A stretch of DNA of 64,000 nucleotides from Candidatus Latescibacterota bacterium (lineage in GTDB: Bacteria; Latescibacterota; UBA2968; UBA8231). How positions within the stretch are numbered: position 1 is the stretch's first letter; each line of letters begins with the position of its first letter. The notes under the pieces were generated by a model, which was not told the origin of the DNA, ran no database searches, and was given only the letters and a program-made list of their open reading frames with translations. Shown here piece after piece: positions 26,834 through 49,899 of this stretch. The stretch spans positions 2,144,001 to 2,208,000 of the forward strand of contig OZ242005.1 of NCBI GenBank assembly GCA_965204725.1, given 5' to 3'. The position numbers and the translations under genes are program-made.

Positions 26834-26892
26834 TCGTATAAAATCGTATAAAATCGTATTAAATACGATTTTATACGATTTTATACGATTTT
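26834..26892. promoter_or_regulatory. 3+3 inverted array of 10-bp AAAATCGTAT repeats, copy 1 (candidate enhancer)
   Basis: TCGTATAAAATCGTATAAAATCGTAT-TAA-ATACGATTTTATACGATTTTATACGATTTT, about 120-180 bp upstream of P1. Confidence 0.8.
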
Positions 26893-26937
26893 TGGCTGCC
26901 TCTTCGGGCGCGTCAAACAGCTCAAAAGAAGGCCCTT

Positions 26938-29142
26938 CTAGGGCAGCTTGGTCGTCTTTTTCGCTTCCACCCGCCCGTCCATCTCGACCCGATAGATATA
27001 CACGCCCGCGGCCACCGCCTTGCCCGCCTCGTCGCGCCCATCCCATACAAACCGATGGCTGCCGGCCCGCAACGGCCCCTGCCACACCTGTCGCACCCGA
27101 CGACCTAACATGTCGTACACTCGCAACGATACTTCCGTCGCGTCCGTCGCTAAATCGAGGGGCAGCACCACCGCCGGATTGAACGGATTGGGATAGCTGT
27201 CGCCCAGCCGATACTGCGCCGGCTGTGCGACCGCTGGCGTCTGCACCGCGGTCATCTGATCGGCCAGCGAATTCTTGAGGATATGCACCCCACCCAAAAT
27301 CGGGTCTAACACCAACAGGTCGAGATCGCCGTCGCCATCCATATCCCCAGACAGCACGGTTCTCCCACTGCCCTCCAGCCGATGCCGCTCCCCGTCTTGG
27401 GTCGGATTGATACTTCCCCCCCATTCGATAAACACCCCAAACCCCGAAGCGCGGTCTCCGCCGATAAACACCCAGTCGTCAACCCCATCGGCATTGAGAT
27501 CGCGTATCAGCATCTGCGAGCGACGCAACAGCCGATCGTCATACAGCACCTCCGCGTCTAGGCGGTCGCCAACCCCCTTCCTCTGCAAGACGATACCCTT
27601 GCTCCCTTCAACTATATCGGCGGTGAACTCGGTGAGAAAATCCACCTGTCCGTCGCCGTCAAAATCGCCCACCCCTAACGGCTTCATATCTTCATCGACC
27701 TCAAAGACCTCGCCCCGCTGAAACTCCTCGGGATCGCTGCTCTCCAACGCCTTGTCTAAGGGAGACACAATCCACCCTCGCGCCAGATTGCGGATCGGCG
27801 ACCAGAACACATCGATGATCCCATTGCCGGTAAAGTCGCCGATGTAAATGGGCGTGTATTTGTCAAAATACGCCACCTCAGAGGACATCCACTCGCCCTG
27901 TTCAACCTCCCAGACTGCTAAAGTGCTAAAAAACTCCGCCGTTCCCGCGATTGCTTCCTCCAAAGTGCCTACATATCCAGCTCCCCCGACAAATAATTCG
28001 GCCCGGCCGTCGCCATCCCAATCGGCCGCACTCGTGATCGGAGCATCGATCTGCGCGAGTACCTCCACTTGGAGGTCCGGGCCGATAGACCACACTTCGG
28101 TCAAAGGCTCCCGGTTGCTTCTCGATATCGCGATTTCGTCTCGACCATCGCCGGTCAAATCGGCACCAAGCACATCTAAGGCCACCCCTATGGTGACTAT
28201 TTTCACCTCCCCTCCTATGGCGGCTTCTTCCCCTTCCTCTGCGGCAGCTACTTCCTCTATAACAGGTCCCCGTTCCAAGACCCCGTGCCCGTCATTGAGT
28301 GCCATCAGCCAACCCGCTTTCTCCCCATGAGCACCATGCTTATTAAGTATTTTCATTTCCCACAGGCCGAACAGGTCTAAGTCGCCATCGCCATCCAAGT
28401 CCGTCAACACATTGCCCCCTCCTCTCCCTAGATACATGTCTAGAACCCCTTCTACTTCCCCGATGCCCGGGGCAATCGGATAGAACACCGGCGGCGCAAA
28501 AAGCCCCGTCCCAGCAAAGCGAAAGTAATGCTCTACCAGCGGCGGAGGGAGTTCCCCCTCTAGCAACTCTTCCACGCCGGTCAACTCGATCCAGTCGATC
28601 TCAAATGCCTCCACCACCTCAATATCCAAATCAAACCCCAGTATAAAGCTGAACCGAAGATTTCTTAACAGGCCCTCCCAGCCGGCTTGACCCGCCAACG
28701 AGACCTCCACTTCCTGCCACTCGGTCGTATAGACGACTTGTTGAATGGGGACCAGTACGTCTATGAAGTTAAGAACAAAAACATGACCTAAATCGTTGTC
28801 CCATTGCATGGAAAAAGTACCCTCGGTAGGGCGGTCATGGACGGTGCGGAACCGGATGCGGAGTCGGTCGAACAGACTCGAATCGTACCCGATGGTTGAA
28901 GAAACCACTTCGACACTTGGCCGGGAGGGGTTGAAACTGTTGGTAATGGCGGGATCAACCCGGATCCGCCACACCCCCTCGTCAACCTCGCCGGGAAACG
29001 GGTGAAACTCCCGCGTACCTCCCCACTCAAGACCTTCTTTGGCGGACCACCCTTGCGTCGTCCCATCGTCGAAATCCCACCGAATCGCCCCAGCGAGGCT
29101 GCTCCACAGCATAACAGCAACAACGGCGAGTAGCAGCAACAT
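26938..29142 (-). CDS. Secreted beta-sandwich + FG-GAP/VCBS propeller + FlgD-Ig protein, paralog A (734 aa)
   Basis: AAAGGAG RBS before ATG 29142; signal peptide; WDFDDGTTQGW..IDWIELTG; repeated DxDGDG loops; YPNPFNP..WDGRDEAG C-terminal domain. Confidence 0.88.
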   Translation of the reverse strand: MLLLLAVVAVMLWSSLAGAIRWDFDDGTTQGWSAKEGLEWGGTREFHPFPGEVDEGVWRIRVDPAITNSFNPSRPSVEVVSSTIGYDSSLFDRLRIRFRTVHDRPTEGTFSMQWDNDLGHVFVLNFIDVLVPIQQVVYTTEWQEVEVSLAGQAGWEGLLRNLRFSFILGFDLDIEVVEAFEIDWIELTGVEELLEGELPPPLVEHYFRFAGTGLFAPPVFYPIAPGIGEVEGVLDMYLGRGGGNVLTDLDGDGDLDLFGLWEMKILNKHGAHGEKAGWLMALNDGHGVLERGPVIEEVAAAEEGEEAAIGGEVKIVTIGVALDVLGADLTGDGRDEIAISRSNREPLTEVWSIGPDLQVEVLAQIDAPITSAADWDGDGRAELFVGGAGYVGTLEEAIAGTAEFFSTLAVWEVEQGEWMSSEVAYFDKYTPIYIGDFTGNGIIDVFWSPIRNLARGWIVSPLDKALESSDPEEFQRGEVFEVDEDMKPLGVGDFDGDGQVDFLTEFTADIVEGSKGIVLQRKGVGDRLDAEVLYDDRLLRRSQMLIRDLNADGVDDWVFIGGDRASGFGVFIEWGGSINPTQDGERHRLEGSGRTVLSGDMDGDGDLDLLVLDPILGGVHILKNSLADQMTAVQTPAVAQPAQYRLGDSYPNPFNPAVVLPLDLATDATEVSLRVYDMLGRRVRQVWQGPLRAGSHRFVWDGRDEAGKAVAAGVYIYRVEMDGRVEAKKTTKLP

Positions 29143-29231
29143 AGCTCGTCTCCTTTGCAATAGTTTCGGCTCCAGTATAGATGATTTAGGCGGTCTTATG
29201 CCGTCTCGTCGGCTCACGTTTCTACCACTCC

Positions 29232-31385
29232 TTACGGCAGCTTCGTCGTCTTTTTCGCTTCCACCCGCCCTTCGACTTCTACCCGATAGACATACACGCC
29301 CGCGGCCACTGCCTTGCCCGCCTCGTCGCGGCCATCCCACACAAACCGATGGCTGCCCGCCCCCAACGGCCCGTCCCACACCTGACGCACCTGACGACCC
29401 AGCACGTCATGCACCCGCAACGATACTTCCGCCGCGTCCGTCGCTAAATCAAGGGGCAACACCACCGCCGGATTGAACGGGTTGGGATAGCTGTCGCCCA
29501 GCCGGTATTGCGTCGGCTGCACAGCCGCCGATGTCTGCACGGCCGTCGGCGTCGAAGCCAGCGAACTCTTGAGGACATGCACTCCACCCAAGATCGGGTC
29601 TAACACCACCAAATCCTCATCGCCATCGCCATCCATATCCCCGGACAGCACACGGGTCCCACTGCCCGCCAGCCGATGCCGCTCCCCGTCTTGGGTCGGG
29701 TTGATACTTCCCCCCCATTCGACGAACACGCCAAAGCCCGAAGCGCGGTCTCCGCCGATAAACACCCAATCGTCAACCCCATCGGCGTTGAGATCGTCCA
29801 CTAGCACCGGCGAGCGCACAAACAGCCGATCATCATACAGCACCGCCGACTCTACGCCGCCGCCGCTCTTGCTATGCAAGGCCAGCCCCTTGAGACCTTC
29901 GACATAATCACGGATGAACTCGGTGAGGAAATCCACCTGCCCGTCGCCATCAAAATCGCCCGCCGCTGACAGCCACTTCCATTCTGCGACTTCAAATACC
30001 TCGTTGCTCGGAAGCACCTCGCCCAAGGCCCCCACACCCCAAGTAGTTGCCCGCCCGAATATCGGCCTCCAAAACACGTCGAGGGCTCCATCGCCGGTAA
30101 AGTCGCCGATCTGATAGGGCACATGGCGTTCAGCTACCGCCACCTCCTCAACAGTCCACACGCCCTGTTCGACATCCCAGACCTCTAAAATGCTCCCCTC
30201 TTCCAACGAAGTCGTTCCGACAAATAACTCGGCCTTGCCGTCGCCATCCCAATCCGCTACGTCCCTGAGCCATCGACTCTCGATCTGTACGAGCACCTCG
30301 ACTTGGAGTTCCGCCCCGATAGACCACACTTCTACTGCCGATCCAGCATTGCTTATATACATCGCGACTTCGTCTCGACCATCGCCGGTCAGGTCCGCAG
30401 CCAGCACCTCTAACTCCACCAAGGAGACGGTCATCCCGCCCGTTTCCGAATCGGTGATAGACTGCCCTGTGACCGCTACTTCCTCTATGCGCTTGAGTTC
30501 CAAGACCCCGTGCCCATTATTGAGGGCCATCAGCCAGCCCGCTTGATCCCCTGGCTGATCCGCTCCCTCGTGCGGGGAACTCCAGACAGCAAACAGGTCT
30601 AAGGCCCCATCGCCATCCAAATCCGTCAAGACGCCCGGTCTCTCATCCGGAACTCCCCTTCCCCCGATGCCCGGCGCAATCGGATAGAATACCGGCGGCG
30701 CAAAAAGCCCAGCCTCATCCCAGCGAAGATACGCTACCAGCGGCGGCGGCAGTTCCCCCTGTAGCAGCTCTTCCACGCCGGTCAACTCGATCCAGTCGAT
30801 CTCAAACCACGCCACCACATCGGACGCCGACTGGGTTGGCTCTGTTAGCTCTGTATCAAAAAGAAAACTGAGCTGAATATCTTTTAACAGGCCCTCCCAG
30901 AGCGTCTCGTCTTGCTCGGCCAACGACAGCACCACTTCCTGCCACTCGGTCGTATAGACGACTCGTTGTACGTGGCTGTGAAATCGGCTTCCAGATCGCG
31001 GGGCTTCTGGATCCCAACCGGAAGACAGGGCGTTGTGCTCGTTGGTCCACTCCATTGAAACATTACCGACCGTCGGGCGGTCATGGACGGTGCGGAACCG
31101 GATGCGGACCCGGTCGAACAGGCTCGAATCGTGCCCGATGGTCGAAGAAATCAATTCGACATTCTGTCCTTTGTAATTGCCTTTGACGACCGCGGGATCG
31201 ACCGCGACCCGCCACACGCCCTCGTCAACCTCGCCCGGAAACAGATGCAATTCACGTATTCCTCCCCATACACCCGCTTCTTTGGCGGTCCACCCTTGCG
31301 TCGTCCCATCGTCGAACTCCCACCGAATTGCCCCGACGAGGTTACTCCACAGCACAAGCCCTATAACACCAGCAAACTTCAGCAT
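29232..31385 (-). CDS. FG-GAP + FlgD-Ig secreted protein, paralog B (717 aa)
   Basis: Same architecture as A; MLKFA-type signal peptide. Confidence 0.88.
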   Translation of the reverse strand: MLKFAGVIGLVLWSNLVGAIRWEFDDGTTQGWTAKEAGVWGGIRELHLFPGEVDEGVWRVAVDPAVVKGNYKGQNVELISSTIGHDSSLFDRVRIRFRTVHDRPTVGNVSMEWTNEHNALSSGWDPEAPRSGSRFHSHVQRVVYTTEWQEVVLSLAEQDETLWEGLLKDIQLSFLFDTELTEPTQSASDVVAWFEIDWIELTGVEELLQGELPPPLVAYLRWDEAGLFAPPVFYPIAPGIGGRGVPDERPGVLTDLDGDGALDLFAVWSSPHEGADQPGDQAGWLMALNNGHGVLELKRIEEVAVTGQSITDSETGGMTVSLVELEVLAADLTGDGRDEVAMYISNAGSAVEVWSIGAELQVEVLVQIESRWLRDVADWDGDGKAELFVGTTSLEEGSILEVWDVEQGVWTVEEVAVAERHVPYQIGDFTGDGALDVFWRPIFGRATTWGVGALGEVLPSNEVFEVAEWKWLSAAGDFDGDGQVDFLTEFIRDYVEGLKGLALHSKSGGGVESAVLYDDRLFVRSPVLVDDLNADGVDDWVFIGGDRASGFGVFVEWGGSINPTQDGERHRLAGSGTRVLSGDMDGDGDEDLVVLDPILGGVHVLKSSLASTPTAVQTSAAVQPTQYRLGDSYPNPFNPAVVLPLDLATDAAEVSLRVHDVLGRQVRQVWDGPLGAGSHRFVWDGRDEAGKAVAAGVYVYRVEVEGRVEAKKTTKLP

Positions 31386-31452
31386 GATAGCACAACTCCC
31401 TTTCTAACAGTAACATTCCCACAGACTGCGCCCTATCCGTGAACCTTACTCC

Positions 31453-33657
31453 TTACGGCAACTTCGTCGTCTTTTTCGCTTCCACCCGCCCGTCCATCTC
31501 GACCCGATAGATATACACCCCGGCCGCCACCGCCTTACCTGCCTCGTCGCGCCCATCCCATACAAACCGATGCTGACCTGCCCCCAGCGGCCCCTGCCAC
31601 ACCTGACGCACCCGGCGACCCAACACGTCATAAACCCGCAGCGATACTTCCGCCGCGTCCTTAGCCAAATCAAGGGGCAACACCACCGCCGGATTAAACG
31701 GGTTGGGATAGCTGTCGCCCAGCCGATACTGCGCCGGTCGCCCAGCCGCCGACGTCCGCACGGCTGTCGCGGTCGAAGCCAGCGAATTCTTGAGCAGATG
31801 CACCCCACCCAAAATCGGATCTAACACCAACAGATCGAGATCGCCGTCGCCATCCATATCCCCGGACAGCACATTGGTCCCACTGCCCTCCAGCCGATGC
31901 CGCTCCCCGTCTTGGGTCGGGCTGATACTTCCACCCCATTCGACGAACACCCCAAACCCCGAAGCGCGGTCTCCGCCGATAAACACCCAGTCGTCAACTC
32001 CATCGCCATTGAGATCGCGTATCAGCACTGGCGAGCGACGCAACAGCCGATCATCATACAGCACTTCGGCTTCTAGGCGGTCGCCGGCCCCCTTCCTCTG
32101 CAAGACGAGCCCCTTGCTTCCTTCGATTATATCGGAGGTGAACTCGGTGAGAAAATCCACCTGTCCGTCGCCATCAAAATCGCCCACCCCTAACGGCCGC
32201 CGCTCTTCATTGACCTCAAAGACCTCGCCCCGCTGAAACTCCTCGGGATCGTTGCTCTGCAACGCCTTGTCCAAGGGAGACACAATCCATCCTCGCGCCA
32301 GATTGCGGATCGGCGACCAGAACACATCGAGAATCCCGTTGCCGGTAAAGTCGCCGATGTAGGTGGGCGCGTATTTTTCAAAATACGCCACCTCAGAGGA
32401 CGTCCACCCGCCCTGTTCAACCTCCCAGACTGCTAAAGTGCTAAAAAACTTCGCCGTATCATTGATCACATCATCTAAAGTGCCTTCGTACGTAGCTCCC
32501 CCGACAAATAATTCGACCCGGCCGTCGCCATCCCAATCGGCCACACTATGAACCCGACTATCGATCTGCGCGAGCACCTCCACTTGGAGGTCCGAGCCGA
32601 TAGACCACACTTCGGTCGAAGGATCCCGGTTGCTTCTCGATATCGCGATTTCGGCTTGACCATCGCCGGTCAAATCGGCACCAAGCACCTTTAAGGCCAC
32701 CCCTCTGGGGACTATTGCCACCTCCCCGCCTACGGCGGCTCCTTCCCTCTCTTCTGCGGCAGCTACTTCTTCGATAACAGGCCCCCGTTCCAAGGCCCCG
32801 CGCCCGTCATTGAGTGCCATCAGCCAACCCTCTTTCTCCCCATGACCCCCATACTTATTAGGTATTTTCATTTCCCACAGGCTGAACAGGTCTAAGTCCC
32901 CATCGCCATCCAAGTCCGTCAACACATTGCCACCTCCCCCCCCTAGATACATGCTTTGACCATTAGGTGCTTCCCCGATGCCCGGGGCAATCGGATAGAA
33001 CACCGGCGGCGCAAAAAGCCCCGTCCCAGCAAAGCGAAAATACTCTGTATATGGCGGGGGGAGTTCCCCCTGTAGCAACTCTTCCACGCCGGTCAACTCG
33101 ATCCAGTCAATCTCAAACGCCTCCACCACCTCGGTATCTAAATCATAACCCAGCATAAAACTGAACCGAAGGTTCCTTAACAGGCCCTCCCAGCCATATT
33201 GACCCTCCAACGAGATCTCCACTTCCTGCCACTCAGTCGTATAGACGACTTGTTGAATGGGGACTTCTCCTTCAAGACTAAAAAAATCATGACCTGAAGC
33301 ACTGTCCCATTCCATTGAAAAACGACCTTCGGTAGGGCGATCATGGACGGTGCGGCAGCGGATGCGAACCCGGTCAAACAGACTCGAATCATATCCGATG
33401 GTCGAAGAAACCACTTCGACACTCGGTTGAGAGGGTTTGAAACTGTTGGCGACCACAGGGTCAACCCGAATCCGCCACACACCCTCGTCGATCATCCCCG
33501 GAAACTGGTGAAATTCACGCGTACCCCCCCGACCACTCCATACGTGTGCTTCTTTGGCGAACCACCCCTGCGTCGTCCCATCGTCGAACTCCCACCGAAT
33601 CGCCCCAGCGGGATCGTCCCACAGCACAACGGCAACAACGGCGAATAGCAGCAACAT
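31453..33657 (-). CDS. FG-GAP + FlgD-Ig secreted protein, paralog C (734 aa)
   Basis: Same architecture; AAAGGAG RBS before ATG 33657. Confidence 0.88.
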   Translation of the reverse strand: MLLLFAVVAVVLWDDPAGAIRWEFDDGTTQGWFAKEAHVWSGRGGTREFHQFPGMIDEGVWRIRVDPVVANSFKPSQPSVEVVSSTIGYDSSLFDRVRIRCRTVHDRPTEGRFSMEWDSASGHDFFSLEGEVPIQQVVYTTEWQEVEISLEGQYGWEGLLRNLRFSFMLGYDLDTEVVEAFEIDWIELTGVEELLQGELPPPYTEYFRFAGTGLFAPPVFYPIAPGIGEAPNGQSMYLGGGGGNVLTDLDGDGDLDLFSLWEMKIPNKYGGHGEKEGWLMALNDGRGALERGPVIEEVAAAEEREGAAVGGEVAIVPRGVALKVLGADLTGDGQAEIAISRSNRDPSTEVWSIGSDLQVEVLAQIDSRVHSVADWDGDGRVELFVGGATYEGTLDDVINDTAKFFSTLAVWEVEQGGWTSSEVAYFEKYAPTYIGDFTGNGILDVFWSPIRNLARGWIVSPLDKALQSNDPEEFQRGEVFEVNEERRPLGVGDFDGDGQVDFLTEFTSDIIEGSKGLVLQRKGAGDRLEAEVLYDDRLLRRSPVLIRDLNGDGVDDWVFIGGDRASGFGVFVEWGGSISPTQDGERHRLEGSGTNVLSGDMDGDGDLDLLVLDPILGGVHLLKNSLASTATAVRTSAAGRPAQYRLGDSYPNPFNPAVVLPLDLAKDAAEVSLRVYDVLGRRVRQVWQGPLGAGQHRFVWDGRDEAGKAVAAGVYIYRVEMDGRVEAKKTTKLP

Positions 33658-33713
33658 AGCTCGTCTCCTTTGCAATAGTTTCGGCTCCAGTATAGATGAT
33701 TTAGGCGGTCTCA

Positions 33714-33874
33714 TAGCCGTCCTACATCCTTCATGGCGTTTTGGGTCTGAGATACTTCGCTGCGCTCAGTATGACAAGGGCTGGGGCACGCACCCCCCGT
33801 CTGTGGGTCATGCTGAACGTAGCGCAGCGCAGTCGAAGCATCGCTACATGCTTGCAAATCATTTAGGACCGCTA
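33714..33874 (-). mobile_element. MITE-like element, family 1, copy b, carrying an inverted pair of GTCAT(A/G)CTGA palindromes
   Basis: Same termini as 9365-9479; absent from the homologous leaders of paralogs A and J. Confidence 0.8.
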
Positions 33875-33909
33875 TATGCCTTCTCATCATCTCACGTTTC
33901 AACCACTCC

Positions 33910-34701: not shown

Positions 34702-34713
34702 CGCTTTGTCTCC

Positions 34714-35751: not shown

Positions 35752-35809
35752 AAGAAACTCCTTTCGGTGTGTTTTAAGGATTCCTTCACTTGCCACTTTC
35801 AACCACTCC

Positions 35810-38008: not shown

Positions 38009-40174
38009 TCACGGCAGCTTCGTCGTCTTTTTGGCTTCCACCCGCCCGTCGATTTCCACCCGATAGATATACACTCCGGCAGCCACGGCCTTGCCCGCCT
38101 CGTCGCGGCCATCCCAAGTAAAACGATGCTGACCTGCCCGCAACGGCCCGTCCCACACCTGACGCACCCGACGACCCAACACGTCATGCACCCGCAGCGA
38201 CACCGCCGCCGCGTCCGTCGCTAAATCGAGAGGCAGCACCACCGCCGGATTGAACGGGTTGGGATAGCTGTCGCCCAGCCGGTATTGTGCCGGTCGCCCA
38301 GCCGCCGACGTCCGCACGGCTGTCGCGGTAGAGGCCAGCGAATTCTTGAGCAGATGCACCCCACCCAAGATCGGATCTAACACCACCAAATCCTCATCGC
38401 CGTCGCCATCCATATCCCCGGACAGCACGATTCTCCCATTGCCCACCAGCCGATGCCGCTCCCCGTCTTGGGTCGGATTGACAAGCCCCCCCCATTCGAT
38501 AAACACCCCAAAGCCCGAAGCGCGGTCTCCACCGACAAACACCCAGTCGTCAACCCCATCGGCATTGAGATCGCGTATCAGCACCGGCGAGCGACGCAAC
38601 AGCCGATCATCATACAGCACCTCCGCTACGAGGCGGTCGCCAGCCCCCTTCCTCTGCAAGACGATGCCTTTGCTCCCTTCGATGTAATCACGGATGAACT
38701 CGGTGAGGAAATCCACCTGCCCATCGCCATCAAAATCGCCTATCCCTAACAACCCCACCTGTTCATCGACTTCAAACGCCTCGCTACGCTGAAACGCCTC
38801 GGGCGCGCTGTTCTGCAACCCCTCGTCCAACGGAGACACAATCCACCCTCGCGCCAGATTGCGAATCGGCGACCAGAACACCTCGAAAACCCCATTGCCG
38901 GTAAAGTCGCCGATGTGCTGGGGCACATATTTTTCCGAAGACGCCACCTCAGCGGACATCCACCTGCCCTGTTCAACCTCCCAGACTGCTAAAGTACTAA
39001 AGTACTCCGCCGTATTATTGCGCACATCGTCTAGGGTGCCCTTATATGTAGTTCCCCCGACAAATAATTCGACCCGGCCATCGCCGTCCCAATCGGCCAC
39101 ACTATGAAGCGAGCGGTCAATCTGCACGAGCACCTCCGCTTGGAGGTCCGGGCCGATAGACCACACTTCAGTCGGCAGATCTGAAGTGTGGTCTATGGTT
39201 ATCGCGATTTCGTCTTGACCATCGCCCGTTAAATCAGCACCCATCACCTCTAAGGACAACATGGGGACGATTACACTTCCCGTTCCCGCCTCGGTATCAC
39301 TCCCCCTTATGGATACTACTTTATTAACAGACTCCCGTTCCAAGGCCCCCCGCCCGTCATTGAGTGCCATCAGCCAGCCACTCTCAGGCTCAAGCTCCTG
39401 TTGCACTTTCGTGGGCGTGCCCCACAGGCCAAACAGGTCTAAGTCGCCATCGCCATCCAAGTCCGTCAACACGCCGCCCTGCCGCTCCCCTATATACCCG
39501 CCTCGATGAAATTCTTGCCCTGTGCCCGGCGCAATCGGATAGAACACCGGCGGCGCAAAAAGCCCGGCCCCATCAAAGCGAAAGTACTCTACCAACGGCG
39601 GCGGCCGTTCCCCCTGTAGCAACTCTTCTGCGCCGGTCAACTCGATCCAGTCAATCTCAAACTTCTCGATCCTCGCGGTAGCGGTACCCGACAGTCTAAA
39701 GGCTAGTATGATATTTTTTAACGGCCCCTCCCATCCGTCTCGATCCGCCAACGACAGCACCACTTCCTGCCACTCGGTGGTATAGACGACTTCTTTGGAA
39801 ACGAGCGTCTCGAAATAAGCTCTAAACCCTGAAGCGTTTTCCCACCCGACCGCGAGAGAACCCTCCGTAGGGTCGTCGTGGATGGTGCGGCAGCGGATGC
39901 GGACGTAGTCGAACAGGTCCGAATCATACCCGATGATCGGAGAAAACAATTCGCCTTCCGGCAGGGGGGACACAGTCTTGGTCGCCGCGGGATCGACCGT
40001 GATCCGCCACACGCCCTCGTCGACCACCCAAGGGAAATGATTAAATTCACGCGCACCACGTATTTTTTCTTTAGCGGACCACCCTTGCGTCGTCCCATCG
40101 TCGAACTCCCACCGAATCGCCCCAGCGGGGATACTCCACAACACAATCCATGCAACGGCGGCAAATTTCAGCAT
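38009..40174 (-). CDS. FG-GAP + FlgD-Ig secreted protein, paralog G (721 aa)
   Basis: Same architecture; first gene after P2. Confidence 0.88.
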   Translation of the reverse strand: MLKFAAVAWIVLWSIPAGAIRWEFDDGTTQGWSAKEKIRGAREFNHFPWVVDEGVWRITVDPAATKTVSPLPEGELFSPIIGYDSDLFDYVRIRCRTIHDDPTEGSLAVGWENASGFRAYFETLVSKEVVYTTEWQEVVLSLADRDGWEGPLKNIILAFRLSGTATARIEKFEIDWIELTGAEELLQGERPPPLVEYFRFDGAGLFAPPVFYPIAPGTGQEFHRGGYIGERQGGVLTDLDGDGDLDLFGLWGTPTKVQQELEPESGWLMALNDGRGALERESVNKVVSIRGSDTEAGTGSVIVPMLSLEVMGADLTGDGQDEIAITIDHTSDLPTEVWSIGPDLQAEVLVQIDRSLHSVADWDGDGRVELFVGGTTYKGTLDDVRNNTAEYFSTLAVWEVEQGRWMSAEVASSEKYVPQHIGDFTGNGVFEVFWSPIRNLARGWIVSPLDEGLQNSAPEAFQRSEAFEVDEQVGLLGIGDFDGDGQVDFLTEFIRDYIEGSKGIVLQRKGAGDRLVAEVLYDDRLLRRSPVLIRDLNADGVDDWVFVGGDRASGFGVFIEWGGLVNPTQDGERHRLVGNGRIVLSGDMDGDGDEDLVVLDPILGGVHLLKNSLASTATAVRTSAAGRPAQYRLGDSYPNPFNPAVVLPLDLATDAAAVSLRVHDVLGRRVRQVWDGPLRAGQHRFTWDGRDEAGKAVAAGVYIYRVEIDGRVEAKKTTKLP

Positions 40175-40243: not shown

Positions 40244-40260
40244 ATGCAAATTGCGTGCCA
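40244..40260 (-). promoter_or_regulatory. Sigma-54 promoter P2 (TGGCACGCAATTTGCAT)
   Basis: Exact -24/-12 consensus upstream of paralog G. Confidence 0.88.
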
Positions 40261-40282
40261 AAAATCAGGGTACGCACAAAAA

Positions 40283-40309
40283 AATCCTTTAGGATGATCC
40301 TAAAGGATT
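40283..40309. promoter_or_regulatory. Perfect 13-bp inverted repeat AATCCTTTAGGAT-G-ATCCTAAAGGATT
   Basis: Recurs with one mismatch at 49740-49766; absent from P1. Confidence 0.65.
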
Positions 40310-40376
40310 GAAAATATAGGAGTTATAAAATTTAATTTTCTTTTTTTCAGCCCATACACGCGCAATGAGGAACCAT

Positions 40377-40442
40377 AAAAAATCGTATAAAATCGTATAA
40401 AATCGTATTATATACGATTTTATACGATTTTATACGATTTTT
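40377..40442. promoter_or_regulatory. 3+3 inverted AAAATCGTAT array, copy 2
   Basis: Most complete copy; about the same distance from P2 as copy 1 is from P1. Confidence 0.8.
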
Positions 40443-43400: not shown

Positions 43401-43580
43401 ATCTGGGACGGTAAACGTATCAAACCGAGCGCTGTCGAACCGGCTGACGCCGCCGTCGGCCGTGGCAATCCAGAGGAACCCTTGGCTGTCTTGGTAGAGG
43501 TCTTCAACGTGCATCCCGCCCAGCCCATTGAACATGGTATAGTGATGCCCCTGCACGTGCTCAAAGGATAGGTCGCTCAT
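40476..43580 (-). CDS. Sigma-54 enhancer-binding protein with N-terminal Reg_prop beta-propellers and a Y_Y_Y-like domain (about 1034 aa; start uncertain)
   Basis: Repeated GLP..V..I.ED..G.IWIGT units; YRHRL..W..Y..L..GDYRFEV; GETGTGK, ESELFGHEKGSFTGA, LFLDEIGE, WPGNIREL; C-terminal HTH GAARILGM. Confidence 0.92.
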   Translation of the reverse strand: MSDLSFEHVQGHHYTMFNGLGGMHVEDLYQDSQGFLWIATADGGVSRFDSARFDTFTVPDGLPSQTVMAIAEDPEGRLLFGTFGGGLAAYDGRGFEVYTTKEGLPSNEIVGLQAEPDGSIQVLTGAGVAWFDQGRCKKSITHVDGQPLGRVYDLATDVAGTTWLATWDRGILSLDGRRMDLGDQPVRWPWKFAQDPSGHLWVVFHHESREALIGRYDPYAEQFASIRVDGQAERAVQQGVRHVRADERGRIWLACRGVVCYDGQAWHPFAPGLPGIDFSNTRLTYEDREGNIWVGLWGGGLIFCDPVSVRFYTEAEGLPDHEVRHLAEDADGRIWIGTLGGMACMEEGHIQPLDMNDAVLAMMADGEGQIWSGGERGRVYQWEGQTPRAIAVGAASNSEEITGLCEDRQGRIWVGTFQGHFGWIEANRFTPFDGWEGEECRALLQDPNGVFWVGFFGKVPALYWDKDDHFCPADIAESETIVYVNVLWEHQNVLWVGTAKGLFTFDHSSKEVRHFTVDVSGLPANGVLALTADPQGHVWLGTSGGGALRYNGETFQNIRLGDSVLGNIVEAVLCDRRGRLWFGTRAGLVAYQPGDTPPRVVIREVLAGSLFAMPQDVSFSEDVSEVRIHFQGISFRTGARQMCYRHRLVGYAPAEQWSAFTAADAVEYPALSVGDYRFEVQTLDRDGLRSEVVSLAIRVVLDDRAKRTDVPTEDRLSAPLMVESQTPVMHEVMRQVEEVAWSDVAVLVLGETGTGKGVLAQSIHDFSQRSDRPFVQVNCGALPPSLVESELFGHEKGSFTGANNRQVGRFEQANGGTLFLDEIGELPPQAQRVLLNVLEEKLLTRVGGEQPVPLDVRIVAATNRDLRQAIQTEAFRGDLFYRLNTFTVELPPLRQRLGDIPDLVKHFVDQFVAEQKLPAPTMGHGVIAHLQSHSWPGNIRELQHVLQRGILLCEGGVLRVEDLEFPLDEPPAGGETQAKRPVIMDEKQQIVEALQAAGGRIYGERGAARILGMNPERLRSRMRVHGLQPPKKSS

Positions 43581-43673
43581 TTTCGGCCTTTCGGCGGTTG
43601 GGAGGTCTTCCCCGAAGCGGGAAGGAGAAAATGAACGCCTAAGATACGACAATCGCCGCCCGAAAACTACCCG

Positions 43674-45011
43674 TCAGTCCGCCGCGACGAGTTGCCGTGC
43701 CAACGACCCCTCGCGCGTCAGGGCGTACACCACGACATTCACTCCCAAATTATAGGCCGACATCTCATCGATGCTCGAAAGGAAAAATGGCGTATTGCTG
43801 ATGTTATTCCGCACCCCCTCATCCCGTGCCCGCTCGGCGATGCCCGACCAGAAATCAGCGTACCCGCGCATCGAATACATCCCCACCAACTGCTCCCCGA
43901 CCAAGATGCCCTCCAAGTAGTCTGGGGTTAGCGGTGGGGATTCTCCGCCTTCTGTGAAGTGCATATCGCGCATCCCGCGGGGGAGGCTTTCTACATCGTA
44001 GAAGCTGTGGTAAATCGAATGGGTGGTCTCTAGGCGGGCAAACTGCCAGTCCTTCCATTCTTGATAGCCGACCGCTTGGAAGCTGGCCCGAATGAGGGAA
44101 CGCACGGCCGGAATGTCCAAATCGGCGTCGCTGTAGTTGGGCCGCAACAGGCGGACAATTTCTGCAAACAGGAATCCGCCCGAAGTCAAATAGGCCCCAA
44201 GATTGGCGGCCTCTGCCTCGGTAAACTCAAAGGGCGCGTTGGCAGTAAACAGCACGAAGGGCACCTGCAAGAGCTGCGGATCGTCGAGCCGGACCGCGTC
44301 GCGTACCTCGACGTGAACCTGCGTACTGGCGACCATTTTATCGGCCAACCCTTGCAGCATCTGTTTTTCTGCCATTTGGCGCGTCTGAAGGAATATGCGT
44401 GCCTCAGAGCTGGTCTTTTCCTGTTCAGCCCGTTCGATGGACGGGCTGTAAACACTGGACAAATAGAGAAAGCCTTTGAGCTGACGCCGGTCTTTTGGAT
44501 CCATTACGACCATCGCCCGGTGCTGGCCGGTGTCCATGGCCTGCACGTCCATCAGCTCTAAGGCCAAGTCGATCTCGTCGGTCCCTTGCCGCGTCCCTTC
44601 TAATGCTCCAGCCTGCATTTGCGGACCAATGTGCCGAGCGGGGAAGTCCGGCACGGGCAGCACCAGCCGATCCGGCAGGGCCGCTGTCGGCAGCCTAAGT
44701 GCCGCCGACTTGAACATCGGCAGGGCGCGCGTGGCCGTGGGGGCCGGCCGCACCGCGGCGACCGGGGCTGCTTGCAGGGCGGGGCGACGCACCAACGGTC
44801 GCTGCCGGGGCCGTTGCCGACGGGTCAGCGTGCGCTGCGGCGGCGGGCGTTTGGTAAACTCCACCATGATCGGCGACAGGACGGGAAATTGGGCGATCTG
44901 ATCGCGGTGCGTAATGCCGAAGATCACCAGCAGATGCAAGGCCAGCGACACCGCCAAGCAGCCTTGCAGCTTTCTGTTTTTGCGGAGTGGAACTTTCCAC
45001 GACCGTCTCAT
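43674..45011 (-). CDS. Membrane-anchored DUF4159-like protein, paralog 2 (445 aa)
   Basis: N-terminal ~180 aa nearly identical to the product of 25239-26579. Confidence 0.8.
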   Translation of the reverse strand: MRRSWKVPLRKNRKLQGCLAVSLALHLLVIFGITHRDQIAQFPVLSPIMVEFTKRPPPQRTLTRRQRPRQRPLVRRPALQAAPVAAVRPAPTATRALPMFKSAALRLPTAALPDRLVLPVPDFPARHIGPQMQAGALEGTRQGTDEIDLALELMDVQAMDTGQHRAMVVMDPKDRRQLKGFLYLSSVYSPSIERAEQEKTSSEARIFLQTRQMAEKQMLQGLADKMVASTQVHVEVRDAVRLDDPQLLQVPFVLFTANAPFEFTEAEAANLGAYLTSGGFLFAEIVRLLRPNYSDADLDIPAVRSLIRASFQAVGYQEWKDWQFARLETTHSIYHSFYDVESLPRGMRDMHFTEGGESPPLTPDYLEGILVGEQLVGMYSMRGYADFWSGIAERARDEGVRNNISNTPFFLSSIDEMSAYNLGVNVVVYALTREGSLARQLVAAD

Positions 45012-45068
45012 CGGATTATGTCCTTTCCCTACTTTGCGTATGCCTTTTCTACTGTTGCCGCTACGTCC

Positions 45069-45116
45069 GGGATCGAGGGCGTCCCGCCCTCGACGAGGGC
45101 AAGATGCCCTCGATCC
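45069..45116. repeat. REP-like inverted pair GGGATCGAGGGCGTCCCGCCCTCG / CGAGGGCAAGATGCCCTCGATCC
   Basis: Two short hairpins arranged head to head. Confidence 0.7.
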
Positions 45117-45119
45117 TTA

Positions 45120-45243
45120 GAGGCTGTCTGAAAACCCACTTTGGGTAGCCGTAGAGCCGGTCTCCGTCATTCCCGCGAAAGCGGGAATCCAGCCGGGGTC
45201 GTATAGACGCAAGGGGCGACCACCAGAGTTTGCAGACAGCTTC
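45120..45243. mobile_element. MITE-like element, family 2 (16-bp TIRs, TTA duplication), carrying a dRS3-like palindrome at 45166-45192
   Basis: GAGGCTGTCTGAAAAC..GTTTGCAGACAGCTTC (14/16 match); TTA at 45117-45119 and 45244-45246. Confidence 0.75.
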
Positions 45244-45293
45244 TTAGAAAGTTGGCGGCTCGTGTCGTGTAGCAAGGTCAAGTTCCTCTCGCG

Positions 45294-47444
45294 TTACGGC
45301 AGCTTGGTCGTCTTTTTCGCTTCCACCCGCCCTTCGACTTCCACCCGATAGACATACACCCCGGCCGCCACCGCTTTGCCCGCCTCGTCGCGGCCATCCC
45401 ACACAAACCGATGGCTACCCGCCCGCAACGGCCCGTCCCACACCTGACGCACCCGACGACCCAACACGTCATGTACCCGCAGTGATACTTCCGCCGCGTC
45501 CGTCGCCAAATCGAGGGGCAGCACCACCGCCGGATTGAACGGGTTGGGATAGCTGTCGCCCAGCCGATACTGCGCCGGTCGCGCAGCCGCCGATGTCCGC
45601 ACGGCCGTCGCGGTCGAGGCCAGCGAACTCTTGAGCAGATGCACCCCACCCCAGATCGGATCCAACACCACCAAATCCTCATCGCCATCGCCATCCATAT
45701 CCCCAGACAGCACGTGGGTCGCGCTGCCTTGCAGCCGATGCCGCTCTCCTTCTTGGGTCGGATTGACACGTCCCCCCCATTCGACGAACACCCCAAAGCC
45801 CGAAGCACGATCTCCGCCGATAAACACCCAATCGTCAACTCCATCGCCGTTGAGATCGCGCATCAGCACCGGCGAGCGTCGAAACAGCCGATCATCATAC
45901 AATACCGCCGATTCTGCGCCGCCCGTGCTCTTGCTCAGCCAGACGAGCCCCTTACTCCCTTCAAATTGATCCCGTGTGGACTCGGTGAGGAAATCCACCT
46001 GCCCGTCGCCATCAAAATCGCCCACCCCTAATAGCTGCCTATACCCCTCGCCGAATGCAAAGCTCTCGCCTTGCTGCAAGTCCCCGCCCAAAGCCTGCAC
46101 AAGCCACCTGTTTGACCGCCCGGCGATCGGCACCCACACCACGTCTAAGACCCCATCGCCAGTAACATCGCCGACCCGACTGGGCGCATAGTTTGGGTCG
46201 GCCGCTACCTCCTCGGCGGTCCACCCGCCCTCGGCTGCATCCCAGACCTCTAACGTGCTGCCCTCATACGTAACATTCTGCACAAATAATTCGACCCGAC
46301 CGTCGCTGTCCCAATCCGCTGTATCCGCGACCCACCGATCCGCGATCGGCACGAGCACCTCGACTTGCAGTTCCGGCCCGATAGACCACACTTCTGTTCT
46401 CTTTCCCTCGTTGCTTGTAGATAGCACGATTTCGTCGCGACCATCGCCGGTCAAGTCCGCACCCAGCACCCCTAAGACCACCCCGAAACTGCTCGTCACG
46501 CCTGTGTCCTCATCCGTACTCGTCTCCCCGGTGGCCGTTACTTCCTCTGTGCGCCTTAGTTTCAAGGCCCCGTGCCCGTCATTGAGCGCCATCAGCCAGC
46601 CATCTTTAGTCCTCACCCCTATCTGACCATCCTCCCAGACAGCGAACAGGTCTAAGTCGCCATCGCCATCCAAGTCCGTTAAGACGCCGACCTCCTCTCC
46701 ATAAGTACCGCCCCCTATGCCCGGGGCAATCGGATAGAACGCCGGCGCGGCAAAAAGGCCGATCCCGTCCAAGCGAAAATACTCTACGTAGGGCGGCGGC
46801 AGTTCCCCCTGTAAGAGCTCTTCCACGCCGGTCAACTCGATCCAGTCAACCTCGAACCACGCAACCTCAACCACGGCCGCCGCCGACCAAAGATCTACCT
46901 CTGTATCGAGAAGAAAACGGAGCCGAATATCTTTCAATAACCCCTCCCATATCTTCTCGTCTTGACCGGCCAACGACAGCACGATTTCCTGCCACTCAGT
47001 GGTATAGACTAGGTCTTGGACGGAGGTTTCAAACCGGCTGAGCGACAACAGCGGGTCTCCTGGATCCTGACCGGCAGCCAAGGCGTTGTGCTCGTTGGTC
47101 CAAGAGATTGAAAAATGACCGACCGTAGGACGATGATGGACGGTGCGGCAGCGGATGCGGACCCGGTCGAACAGGTCTGAATTGTACCCGATAGTCGGGG
47201 AAATCAATTTGAAATCCGCCCGGGAATCCCTCCCTCTGGTGCTGGAGGAATCGACCGCGATCCGCCACACGCCATCTTCGACCACACTTGGAAACAGGTT
47301 CGTTTCACGTGGCCCTCCCACCCCTATAAGTCCTTCTGTGGCAGACCACCCTTGCGTCGTCCCATCGTCGAACTCCCACTTGATCGCCGCGGCGGGATCG
47401 TTCCACAGCATCACGGCGGCAACAACGGCGAATAGCAGTAGCAT
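45294..47444 (-). CDS. FG-GAP + FlgD-Ig secreted protein, paralog J (716 aa)
   Basis: Same architecture; AAAGGAG RBS before ATG 47444. Confidence 0.88.
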   Translation of the reverse strand: MLLLFAVVAAVMLWNDPAAAIKWEFDDGTTQGWSATEGLIGVGGPRETNLFPSVVEDGVWRIAVDSSSTRGRDSRADFKLISPTIGYNSDLFDRVRIRCRTVHHRPTVGHFSISWTNEHNALAAGQDPGDPLLSLSRFETSVQDLVYTTEWQEIVLSLAGQDEKIWEGLLKDIRLRFLLDTEVDLWSAAAVVEVAWFEVDWIELTGVEELLQGELPPPYVEYFRLDGIGLFAAPAFYPIAPGIGGGTYGEEVGVLTDLDGDGDLDLFAVWEDGQIGVRTKDGWLMALNDGHGALKLRRTEEVTATGETSTDEDTGVTSSFGVVLGVLGADLTGDGRDEIVLSTSNEGKRTEVWSIGPELQVEVLVPIADRWVADTADWDSDGRVELFVQNVTYEGSTLEVWDAAEGGWTAEEVAADPNYAPSRVGDVTGDGVLDVVWVPIAGRSNRWLVQALGGDLQQGESFAFGEGYRQLLGVGDFDGDGQVDFLTESTRDQFEGSKGLVWLSKSTGGAESAVLYDDRLFRRSPVLMRDLNGDGVDDWVFIGGDRASGFGVFVEWGGRVNPTQEGERHRLQGSATHVLSGDMDGDGDEDLVVLDPIWGGVHLLKSSLASTATAVRTSAAARPAQYRLGDSYPNPFNPAVVLPLDLATDAAEVSLRVHDVLGRRVRQVWDGPLRAGSHRFVWDGRDEAGKAVAAGVYVYRVEVEGRVEAKKTTKLP

Positions 47445-47538
47445 AGCACATCTCCTTTGCAACAATTTCGGCTCCAGTCAGGTATAGATGATTTAGGCGG
47501 TCTTATGCCCTCTCACCGGCTCACGTTTCAACCACTCC

Positions 47539-49644
47539 TTACGGCAGCTTGGTCATTTTTTTCGCTTCCACCCGCCCGTCCATCTCGACCCGATAGATAT
47601 ACACGCCCGCCGCCACCGCCCTGCCTGCCTCGTCGCGGCCATCCCATACAAACCGATGGCTGCCTGCCCCCAGCGACCCCTGCCACACCTGACGCACCCG
47701 ACGACCCAACACGTCATGTACCCGCAGCGACACCGTCGCCGCGTCCTTAGCCAAATCAAGGGGCAACACCACCGCCGGATTGAACGGGTTGGGATAGCTG
47801 TCGCCCAGCCGGTACTGCGCCGGTCGCGCAGCCGCCGACGTCTGCACGGCCGTCGGCGTCGAAGCCAGCGAACTCTTGAGGACATGCACCCCACCCCAGA
47901 TCGGATCCAACACCACCAAATCCTCATCGCCATCGCCATCCATATCCCCGGACAGCACGCGGAGCCCAACGCTCTGCAGCCGATGCCGCTCCCCGTCTTG
48001 GGTCGGATTGACACGTCCCCCCCATTCGACGAACACCCCAAACCCCGAAGCGCGGTCTCCGCCGATAAACACCCAGTCGTCAACCCCATCGCCGTTGAGA
48101 TCGCGCATCAGCACCGGCGAGAGTCGAAACAGCCGATCATCATACAACACCGCCGATTCTGCGCCGCCGGCACTCTTGCTCAGCCAGACGAGCCCCTTGC
48201 TCCCTTCAAATTCATCCCGTGTGAACTCGGTGAGTACATCCACCTGCCCATCGCCATCAAAATCGCCCACCCCTAACAGCTTCTTCCAAGCCTCCAATTC
48301 AAAGACCTCGTTTTGCTGAAACTCAGCACCCAAGGCTCCCACCGCCCACGTGTTCGCCTGCCCGACCATCGGTATCCACACCACGTCGAGCACCCCATCG
48401 CCGGTAACGTCGCCAACCCGATAGGCCACATGGTGTTGAGCCGCGGCCACCTCAGCGGATGTCCACACACCCTGTTCCACATCCCAGACTTCTAAAGTGC
48501 TCCCCGCAACAAACAGTTCGGCCTGACCATCGCCATCCCAATCCGCTGCATCCACGATCCATCGATCCGCGATTTGCACCAGCACCTCAACTTGGAGCTC
48601 TGCCCCGATAGACCACACTTCTGTTACCGCTTCCTCCCCGGCGCTCTTATACAGCACGATTTCGTCTCGACCATCGCCGGTCAAGTCCGCCCCCAGCACC
48701 TCTAAGTCCACCCCGGTGACGGTTATACTTCCAGTTTCCGCATCGGTACTAAGCAGCCCTGCGCCCGCTACTTCCTCTATGCGCCTCAGTTCCAAGCCCC
48801 CGTGCCCGTCGTTGAGAGCCATCAGCCAGCCCACTTTAGACCCTGCCTTCCCCTTCTCTCTTTGAGGATACGTCCAGACAGCGAATAGATCTAGGTCGCC
48901 ATCGCCCTCTAAGTCCGTCAAGATACCCTTCTGTGCTCCGGCAAAGCTGTAGCTGTTCCCGATACCCGGCGCAATCGGATAGAACACCGGCGGCGCAAAA
49001 AGCCCCGCCGCATCCCAGCGAAGATACGCTACCGGCGGCGGCGGCAGTTCCCCCTGTAGCAACTCTTCCACGCCGGTCAACTCGATCCAGTCGACCTCAA
49101 ACCACTCCACCGTATCCGATGTCGATTCAACGTCCGAACGATCCAGTGAAAAACTGAGCCGAATATCTTTTAGTAGCCCCTCCCATCTCTTCTCGTCGCG
49201 ACCTACCAAGACAACCACCAATTCCTGCCACTCGGTGGTATAGACGATCTCTTGGAAGAAGGTTGCAAACGCAAGATCCAGACCTGACGGCAGGGCGTTG
49301 TGCTCGTTGGTCCAAGCGAATGAAAAATTACCCATTGTAGGGCGGTGATGGACGATGCGGCAGCGGATGCGGACGTGGTCGAACAGACCCGAATCATACC
49401 CAATGGTCGGCGAAATCAATTCGACCTGCGGCGTAGAGTAGATCCCCTTGGTGACGGCGGGATCGACCGCGATCCGCCACACGCCATCTTCAACCACCCC
49501 CGGAAATTGGTGCAGTTCATGTATCCCTCCCGTAGCTTCTTTGGCGGACCACCCTTGCGTCGTCCCATCGTCGAACTCCCACCGAATCGCCCCGGCAGGA
49601 CCGCTCCACAGCACCACGCTTGCAACAACGGCAAACTTCAACAT
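47539..49644 (-). CDS. FG-GAP + FlgD-Ig secreted protein, paralog K (701 aa)
   Basis: Same architecture; GGAGGTG RBS before ATG 49644; first gene after P3. Confidence 0.88.
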   Translation of the reverse strand: MLKFAVVASVVLWSGPAGAIRWEFDDGTTQGWSAKEATGGIHELHQFPGVVEDGVWRIAVDPAVTKGIYSTPQVELISPTIGYDSGLFDHVRIRCRIVHHRPTMGNFSFAWTNEHNALPSGLDLAFATFFQEIVYTTEWQELVVVLVGRDEKRWEGLLKDIRLSFSLDRSDVESTSDTVEWFEVDWIELTGVEELLQGELPPPPVAYLRWDAAGLFAPPVFYPIAPGIGNSYSFAGAQKGILTDLEGDGDLDLFAVWTYPQREKGKAGSKVGWLMALNDGHGGLELRRIEEVAGAGLLSTDAETGSITVTGVDLEVLGADLTGDGRDEIVLYKSAGEEAVTEVWSIGAELQVEVLVQIADRWIVDAADWDGDGQAELFVAGSTLEVWDVEQGVWTSAEVAAAQHHVAYRVGDVTGDGVLDVVWIPMVGQANTWAVGALGAEFQQNEVFELEAWKKLLGVGDFDGDGQVDVLTEFTRDEFEGSKGLVWLSKSAGGAESAVLYDDRLFRLSPVLMRDLNGDGVDDWVFIGGDRASGFGVFVEWGGRVNPTQDGERHRLQSVGLRVLSGDMDGDGDEDLVVLDPIWGGVHVLKSSLASTPTAVQTSAAARPAQYRLGDSYPNPFNPAVVLPLDLAKDAATVSLRVHDVLGRRVRQVWQGSLGAGSHRFVWDGRDEAGRAVAAGVYIYRVEMDGRVEAKKMTKLP

Positions 49645-49700
49645 GCTATCACCTCCGTAGAGACTTTCAGAAAATTGAGCACGGTTTCTACGGATTATAT

Positions 49701-49717
49701 ATGCAAATTGCGTACCA
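49701..49717 (-). promoter_or_regulatory. Sigma-54 promoter P3 (TGGTACGCAATTTGCAT)
   Basis: GG-N10-GC spacing; one mismatch to P2. Confidence 0.85.
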
Positions 49718-49839
49718 AAAAGCAGGGTACGCACAAAAAAATCCTTTAGGATGATCCTAAAAGATTGAAAATATAGGAGTTATAAAAATTAATTTCTCTT
49801 TTTTCAGCCCATGTACTCGCAATAGGGAACCATGTTTTG

Positions 49840-49899
49840 TCGTATAAAATCGTATAAAGTCGTATTAAATACGACTTTATACGATTTTATACGATTTTT
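49840..49899. promoter_or_regulatory. 3+3 inverted AAAATCGTAT array, copy 3
   Basis: Inner units changed symmetrically to AAAGTCGTAT and ATACGACTTT. Confidence 0.8.

Follow-up and report, generated by a model that had tools for sequence, protein, structure and literature searches.

Helically phased half-site arrays as probable enhancers of a propeller-domain sigma-54 activator in an uncultured Latescibacterota genome

Introduction

The part that enhancer DNA plays in assembling the ring of a sigma-54 activator is an open question, and according to one review, no activator structure includes upstream activating sequence (UAS) DNA (PMC7175178). A 64,000-nucleotide stretch from an uncultured Candidatus Latescibacterota bacterium (NCBI GenBank assembly GCA_965204725.1, contig OZ242005.1, positions 2,144,001 to 2,208,000; G000:C1:2144001-2208000 in the coordinates used below), referred to here as the window, raises this question three times over. 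At three places in the window, six TCGTAT half-sites about one helical turn apart form an array ahead of a sigma-54 promoter, and one of these arrays lies next to the gene for a bacterial enhancer-binding protein, bEBP-A. What do such arrays do, what reads them, and which of their features are kept among relatives?

An earlier note on this DNA had taken the arrays for enhancer sites of a sigma-54 activator. Linkage to promoters, helical phasing, and promoter distance all support that interpretation, and we consider it very probable that each array is the UAS (enhancer) of its sigma-54 promoter and is read by the C-terminal helix-turn-helix (HTH) domain of bEBP-A.

Results

Arrays and sigma-54 boxes occur together

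All three arrays, read directly from the window, have the same layout on the plus strand: (A/G)TCGTAT three times, a 3-nt center, and ATACGA(T/C) three times. The half-site is TCGTAT, the order is three direct and then three inverted, and the center-to-center steps are 10, 10, 9, 10, and 10 bp in each array (Table 1). A two-unit pattern allowing up to two mismatches matched the window 10 times, with every match inside the three arrays, and gave no match in 100 shuffles. The promoter pattern TGGYACGNNNTTTGCW had three window matches against 0.31 expected, each of them a minus-strand TGGCAC-N5-TTGCA of the -24/-12 type (GG-N10-GC). Because all boxes are on the minus strand, the arrays lie upstream of leftward-firing promoters, with half-site centers 124 to 174 nt from the first T of the sigma-54 box. 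The three six-site arrays reported in the earlier note, including their coordinates, pattern, and position relative to the boxes, were thus recovered. The genome carries a single rpoN (one Sigma54_DBD gene, E = 6.6e-59).

The same linkage was found outside the window. Across the 5.43-Mb assembly (60% G+C), the 8-mer unit occurs 65 times, and its only four clusters are the window's three arrays plus another array of 2+2 units (G000:C1:2246863-2246901). A conserved block and a sigma-54 box follow all four arrays, and copy 4 has four half-sites with the rest of its cassette intact. Listing the 260 nt upstream of 36 sigma-54-like boxes genome-wide added three more cassettes, with promoters at C1:4874267, 4887557, and 1005230, in which the half-sites are TTGTGC/TTGTTC and the 3+3 layout, the A4 spacers, the block, the hairpin described below, and the box are all kept. 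Every one of the seven cassettes precedes FG-GAP/FlgD_ig, DUF4159, or neighboring genes.

Among relatives, the closest one with the same half-sites (G019) has a box at 7 of 7 array loci. A dyad-unit search that was blind to both promoter and hairpin returned 69 matches in 16 of the 31 genomes of the genus, compared to 0 for a reversed control. For the 18 distinct loci examined of 30 returned, a box was present at 12 of 12 arrays with at least two units (120 to 128 nt past the end of the array in 11 cases and 152 nt past it in the other) and at 4 of 7 single-unit matches. The observation that the earlier note had named as refuting its reading, arrays elsewhere without linked sigma-54 boxes, was not made in these counts.

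Half-site sequence, phase, and distance are kept among relatives

Cassettes were collected through a two-unit pattern search of 61 related genomes, a hairpin search of the 31 genomes of the genus (matches in 15), and a protein-based locus search that gave 62 loci, plus 12 extra regions; 74 distinct cassettes were obtained after dropping 5 duplicates and 1 incomplete region. Half-sites were called as the best NYGTNN hexamer with no more than one mismatch, on both strands, taking the largest cluster with steps of at most 13. At least four half-sites were called in 51 of the 74 real regions, compared to 3 of 370 shuffled regions.

Spacings of 9 to 12 bp account for 269 of 280 steps in the 74 cassettes, and a half-site that repeats every 9 to 12 bp places the sites on one face of the helix. 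Of the 51 arrays with at least four sites, 26 have the center of the proximal half-site at -122 to -126 and 18 have it at -133 to -137; in the other 7 it falls elsewhere. These two distance classes are one helical turn apart, indicating that both phase and distance are kept. The helical phasing claimed for the window extends to its relatives, and the promoter distance, described earlier as fixed, falls mostly into these two classes. A box follows within 420 nt after 32 of 39 full-length relatives of the activator, and the other 7 relatives are either broken themselves or have lost their cassette. At four loci (L079, L080, L082, and L102), the target gene comes directly after the activator and the cassette is gone or fragmentary, in effect a set of natural deletions.

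Half-site sequence, phasing of about 10 bp, and promoter distance are kept across the 74 cassettes, and what differs between lineages is the order of orientations. The order of the window (>>><<<) is used with both half-site types of this genome and, in G019 and G027, with arrays of the TCGTGC/TGTGC type. Many species have <><><> in the form (ATACGG-A4-TCGTAT)n, a clade comprising loci L087 to L101 has ><><>< in the form (TCGTAT-TWA-ATACGR)n, and >>><>< is the order of the TCGTAT arrays in G019, which alone among the other genomes shares the unit pattern of the window. The two alternating orders make up most of the 27 six-site arrays. Judged by this survey, the long palindrome is specific to this lineage, and the earlier proposal of selection for symmetry is not supported, because the palindrome is not conserved and relatives have alternating dyads or mixed order.

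Site number also varies, with 4 sites in 5 arrays, 5 in 10, 6 in 27, 7 in 4, 8 in 2, 9 in 1, and 10 in 2. The suggestion that six sites template one activator hexamer is supported by six being the mode (27 of 51) and is weakened by this range of 4 to 10 and by copy 4, which has four.

The palindrome as a terminator or cruciform

In copy 3, the inner units carry a mirrored A-to-G change. The change is real, but its description as compensatory was not sustained: the A/G position lacks symmetry in the outer units of both copy 1 and copy 3 and is freely variable in G019. Since this position can be A or G without symmetry elsewhere, and G is present in 3 of the 6 copy 3 units, it is not improbable that two of these units mirror each other. 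One palindrome-templated event would also explain it.

A long palindrome after a gene could instead act mainly as a DNA cruciform or, in the transcript, as a hairpin terminating the gene before it, with promoter proximity being incidental. As observed in the earlier note, copies 1 and 2 do follow stop codons, those of minus-strand open reading frames (ORFs) ending at 26938 and 40476. Copy 2 has the potential for a stem of about 30 bp (-38 kcal/mol) followed by T6, and pairing is preserved by the mirrored change of copy 3. However, the sequence following copies 1 and 3 in the sense direction is CAAAA rather than a T-run, no co-directional gene lies upstream of copies 3 and 4, where only a remnant is found, and the stems are AT rich, with 4 G-C pairs in 20. 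In G019, which has the same half-sites, both the sites and their phasing persist with the long hairpin broken (-14 versus -35 kcal/mol). Within this genome, the palindromes formed by the TTGTGC arrays are imperfect, in other species the dyads are arranged in tandem, and a separate, better-conserved hairpin with a T-run is already present downstream of the arrays in 73 of 74 cassettes. Array folding energy does not separate the arrangement types; as alternating dyads fold too, only the conservation pattern argues against a hairpin role. On this evidence, we regard a terminator or cruciform as very unlikely and retain enhancer sites as the probable function of the arrays.

A conserved hairpin lies between array and promoter

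The AT-rich block TGAAAATATAGGAGTTATAAAA lies between array and promoter in all three window copies, as the earlier note had seen, and had been called weakly IHF-like. The IHF consensus is WATCARNNNNTTR. An exact match was found in 0 of 74 cassettes. With the second base left free, a match was present in 56 of 74 cassettes, located at -53 in 45, compared to 17 of 740 shuffles. The likeness to an IHF site thus stands in relaxed form only, and the conserved element of this interval is a hairpin with a T-run. Three HU/IHF-family genes are present in the genome, for which the IHF models score above HU and below curated cut-offs; one HU/IHF-family gene is within the window (61765-62031, plus strand).

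This proximal hairpin, AATCCTTTAGG-loop-CCTAAAGGATT followed by T6 to T9, was found in every cassette except copy 1 of the window (73 of 74). It consists of an 11-bp stem, identical in 51 of the 73, and a 3- to 6-nt loop of variable sequence, and the T-run ends 16 to 18 nt (17 +/- 1 nt) before the -24 box. A comparison of the 18 distinct stems gave 18 Watson-Crick changes on both sides, 13 G-U pairs, 8 A-C mismatches, and 6 other mismatches; the wobble asymmetry of 13 G-U versus 8 A-C is too weak to show action at the RNA level. In sequence organization, the array, the conserved hairpin with its T-run, and the -24/-12 box were shown by this comparison to be one cassette.

A simple scan called the proximal hairpin terminator-like, and its stem, loop, T-run, and pairing-keeping changes resemble those of a Rho-independent terminator. 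Unlike such a terminator, its stem is identical in most cassettes and it keeps a set distance to the -24 box. Most likely, the hairpin and T-run end transcription of the activator gene and thereby insulate the sigma-54 promoter. An architectural role is possible as well, suggested by the unusually conserved stem and the fixed distance to the -24 box. Rfam at its gathering threshold had no match in window positions 20000 to 52000, so the array, hairpin, and leaders are not explained by a known RNA family.

bEBP-A has a propeller sensor and a C-terminal HTH

The activator gene lies directly upstream of copy 2, the founding cassette. Its product contains Reg_prop propellers, Y_Y_Y, Sigma54_activat (E = 8.4e-68), and AAA_lid_14, and its translation includes a GSFTGA loop of the GAFTGA type. 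No membrane segment was found in bEBP-A, no receiver domain was detected in its domain search, and Pfam HTH_8 was not reported at E = 0.001. A phmmer search of the HTH against the PDB gave weak alignments to the DNA-binding domains of NtrC4 and NifA (E = 0.2 and 0.62), which were used only for alignment of the helix.

The last 110 residues were modeled with AlphaFold2 at low confidence (mean predicted local distance difference test [pLDDT], 62) as an unstructured linker and a three-helix domain without the extra N-terminal "Helix A"; the model was used only for helix count and the disordered linker. Activator DNA-binding domains that lack "Helix A" are described as monomeric without DNA (PMC10590331). 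The linker before the HTH is about 15 to 40 residues long across activators, with a high content of Pro, Ala, Glu, and Gly. By tblastn, the genome has just two full-length activators of the bEBP-A type. The second is 52.5% identical to bEBP-A, and its gene lies ahead of the cassette at C1:4874267, with about 130 bp from the gene end to the array and 317 nt from the gene end to the box.

One HTH residue tracks the half-site

There are 44 distinct cassettes with an activator directly upstream. Their C termini were mapped onto the window protein, the variable third-helix residue of LR[S/Y]R was read, and four cassettes with fewer than three called sites (L088, L077, L057, and L048) were set aside, leaving 40 pairs. 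Ser was found with CGTAT in 19 of 19 cases, and Tyr was found with CGTGG (12), CGTGT (4), CGTGC (2), or CGTTC (3) in 21 of 21 cases and never with CGTAT. The promoter-blind search contributed five further Ser/CGTAT pairs (eight found, three already counted). Half-site identity is held within each HTH type despite changed flanks, order, and number. The Ser position aligns, with weak E values, to a Tyr of the NtrC4 and NifA HTHs, making Tyr the state in these two proteins.

A quick IQ-TREE phylogeny of the AAA+ region was built without the last 62 residues, using 43 rows (L023_1 was dropped as too short). On this tree, the Ser/Tyr label changes 10 times, at least 7 of them on well-supported branches, and independent pairs go in the same direction in 5 of 5 cases on supported branches and 9 of 9 on all branches. 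Ser- and Tyr-type activators (loci L063 to L102) are interleaved on the tree, a distribution that suggests paralog recombination or gene conversion sparing the HTH-plus-enhancer block.

The half-sites might instead be bound by another protein, either a repressor or a stand-alone HTH. One ORF (G000:C1:4900557-4900740; locus L132), which at about 60 aa encodes little more than an HTH, closely resembles the DNA-binding domain of the second activator, which makes HTH-only competitors conceivable. It is of the Tyr type, however, and would suit TTGTGC arrays rather than those of the window. In addition, all 40 pairs show the Ser/Tyr residue of the neighboring activator changing with the half-site, and the position of the arrays ahead of the sigma-54 boxes is within the range classical for enhancers (roughly 80 to 200 bp). 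Binding by another protein therefore seems quite unlikely compared to binding by the activator. As a separate matter, the L132 ORF could compete for TTGTGC arrays as an anti-activator.

Duplicated cassettes and the genes that follow them

From the 3'-end remnant of the activator gene through the promoter, copies 2 and 4 are near-identical and copy 3 is slightly more diverged. The remnant is about 50 bp long at copy 3, marking this copy as a duplicate of the copy 2 cassette, and about 45 bp long at copy 4. By these similarities, copies 2, 3, and 4 arose from a single cassette through recent duplication. The older copy 1 has only the array, AT-rich block, promoter, and leader start in common with the others. 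Because the three duplicates are near-identical, the older comparison available within the genome is that of copy 1 with the rest only.

Duplication also brings up the reading of the cassette as a repeated palindromic or mobile element, similar to a repetitive extragenic palindrome or a miniature inverted-repeat transposable element, without a regulatory role. The cassette does occur seven times in this genome and several times in relatives, and copies 3 and 4 carry the flank of copy 2. Every examined copy, however, is in one orientation directly before a sigma-54 box, the genes after all seven cassettes form one family set (FG-GAP/FlgD_ig plus DUF4159), and the hitch-hiking flank points to segmental duplication of an operon head. 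ATCGTAT repeats at IS605/TnpB-type ends in other families differ in structure from the arrays. A mobile element without regulatory function is very unlikely against this background, and a regulatory cassette remains preferred.

Class-level pattern matches in other families were rejected as candidates. Some proved to be coding sequence (L011, L015, and L016) or unrelated direct repeats. The repeats at IS605/TnpB-type ends (L007, L008, L017, and L018, in G044 and G053) are ATCGTAT/ATGCGAT-like, and their likeness to array units seems coincidental.

From the genes downstream of the boxes, we infer a regulon of secreted FG-GAP/FlgD_ig paralogs and DUF4159 genes. The paralogs downstream of copy 2 are about 720 aa each. 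Downstream of copy 3 (window positions 43652 to 49734, minus strand), two FG-GAP genes are followed by a DUF4159 gene, and bEBP-A starts 21 bp past the DUF4159 stop codon. bEBP-A may thus be the last gene of an operon driven by copy 3, an arrangement that would give positive feedback. A 282-bp gap within this gene run (45011-45294) could hold another promoter.

Discussion

A proposed mechanism

In the mechanism we propose, each TCGTAT half-site would dock one DNA-binding domain, with 15 to 40 residues of disordered linker connecting that domain to the AAA+ ring. The array would raise the local concentration of activator and favor ring assembly, usually on six sites, and DNA bending or looping would bring the ring to the sigma-54 holoenzyme, after which the secreted FG-GAP/FlgD_ig paralogs and DUF4159 genes would be switched on. 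Read-through from the activator gene would be stopped by the hairpin and T-run, leaving the operon dependent on sigma-54 alone. A flexible linker would explain how half-site orientation can vary at conserved sequence, phase, and distance, and one tethered domain per half-site fits the variable, unstructured linker and the lack of "Helix A."

Confidence differs between the parts of this scheme. That the arrays are enhancers read by bEBP-A is, as stated above, very probable. The stricter version, in which these activators read the enhancer one half-site per subunit through a single tethered three-helix domain in either orientation, is tentative, and we consider it rather doubtful. Direct-repeat half-sites are unusual for HTH dimers, and the one-domain model draws on analogy and on a structure prediction with a pLDDT of 62.

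Several other observations temper the overall interpretation. Copies 2, 3, and 4 are not independent. T6 follows copies 2 and 4 in the sense direction, and the simple scan calls copy 2 terminator-like on both strands, so a second role is conceivable. The half-site caller undercounts mixed arrays, and it miscalled L048 and L057; by eye, L057 and L048 have CGTGT and CGTGC/CGTTC dyads. For the Ser/Tyr pairing, the sign test gives p = 0.0625, and 0.05 is unreachable with five pairs. The HTH and the array are only 30 to 330 bp apart, so the association may in part reflect block inheritance while the AAA+ region recombines, which makes the number of independent Ser/Tyr switches uncertain. Finally, the organism is represented by a metagenome-assembled genome of an uncultured bacterium.

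Comparison to known enhancers

The element, a sigma-54 enhancer together with its activator, belongs to a kind already known rather than to a new one, and by analogy the closest precedent is the three-site enhancer of NorR. At norVW of Escherichia coli, three consecutive enhancer sites scaffold a hexamer from three dimers (PMC2831303). Both systems have several consecutive activator sites upstream of a sigma-54 promoter, and the three dimers proposed for NorR would amount to six DNA-binding domains per ring, with most relatives here carrying three dyads. Unlike the NorR sites, the window arrays (>>><<<) contain only one dyad, at the center, instead of three; site number ranges from 4 to 10 among the relatives; and the sensor is a propeller (Reg_prop/Y_Y_Y) rather than the GAF of NorR.

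NtrC at glnAp2, and UAS of enhancer-binding proteins in general, resemble this system in the Fis/NtrC-type HTH. In the general model, as given in a review, paired HTHs sit on upstream dyads, and the ring reaches the holoenzyme through bending or looping of the DNA (PMC7175178). For NtrC, two dimer sites are required, and additional protomers join from solution (PMC2831303). Compared to NtrC sites, the arrays here are longer, are strictly phased, and have A-tract spacers, and for bEBP-A no receiver domain was detected and no "Helix A" was modeled. In the same source, TyrR forms a hexamer from dimers bound at three boxes (PMC2831303); it acts there as a repressor, at sigma-70 promoters, and is likened to the present case by description, not by sequence.

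Apparently distinctive here are the 3+3 order, the range of site number, the apparent tolerance of orientation, the propeller sensor, the promoter-adjacent hairpin, and the Ser/Tyr pairing. A limited literature search gave no paper joining "Latescibacter" with "sigma-54."

As a natural experiment from an unstudied phylum, dozens of cassettes hold half-site, phase, and distance while orientation and number change, and several activator paralogs have a single helix residue that tracks one base of the site. A regulator, its motif, and a candidate regulon can be provisionally assigned in uncultured Latescibacterota. If the one-domain-per-half-site model is true, selection would keep a "ruler" of usually six one-turn steps on one face at a set promoter distance rather than dyad symmetry, and nature would offer a series in which site number (4 to 10) and orientation vary around that fixed ruler. 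Recognition would follow a re-programmable rule, Ser-A/Tyr-G at the fourth base of CGT-N-N, and the role of enhancer DNA in activator ring assembly would become directly testable.

Table 1. Coordinates of the arrays, boxes, and associated features in the window
Feature	Position	Strand	Remarks
Array copy 1, six TCGTAT half-sites (3 direct, 3 inverted)	26834..26892	.	46 bp past FG-GAP gene stop
Array copy 2, six half-sites, perfect palindrome	40377..40442	.	33 bp past activator stop codon
Array copy 3, six half-sites, mirrored A-to-G change in inner pair	49840..49899	.	
Sigma-54 -24/-12 box TGGCACGAAATTTGCA	26697..26712	-	Before DUF4159 gene 25239-26648 and later genes
Sigma-54 box TGGCACGCAATTTGCA	40245..40260	-	Before FG-GAP/FlgD_ig paralog run, 38009-40174 onward to 26938
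Sigma-54 box TGGTACGCAATTTGCA	49702..49717	-	Before two FG-GAP genes and DUF4159 gene
AT-rich block, copy 1	26760..26781	-	Adjoining hairpin degenerate
AT-rich block (40309-40330), hairpin AATCCTTTAGG/CCTAAAGGATT (40283-40309), T-run, copy 2	40276..40330	-	T-run end 17 nt before box
AT-rich block (49766-49787), hairpin (one G-U pair), T-run, copy 3	49733..49787	-	
Activator gene bEBP-A, 1058 aa	40476..43652	-	Reg_prop, Y_Y_Y, AAA+ sigma-54 interaction domain, HTH
Activator gene 3'-end remnant including stop codon	49900..49950	-	Adjoins copy 3
GGAACC motif, window copies	26820-26830, 40363-40373, 49826-49836	+	

Additional observations

A GGAACC motif on the plus strand (GGTTCC when read promoter-wise) is found a few bases after the last unit of every TCGTAT array in this genome, and its counterpart in G019 is TTCC(T/C)CC.

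Other sigma-54 promoters nearby have ordinary paired dyads of different sequence. Further promoter families of this kind were noted at G000:C1:2106894, 2123485, 2128331, 2137698 (just before the window), 395131, and 4782487; one has paired TGCGA...-type dyads about 21 bp apart, and another has a 21-bp direct repeat, GTGTATCACCAGCGGACA, present twice.

Some cassettes are followed by a conserved leader of about 150 nt before a small MQ-LREF... ORF (G000:C1:2247040-2247190 and loci L063, L064, L067, L068, L075, and L083). This leader contains a GGCCGAT...ATCGG inverted repeat and a conserved CTTCCAGT stretch, and it may be a cis-regulatory RNA.

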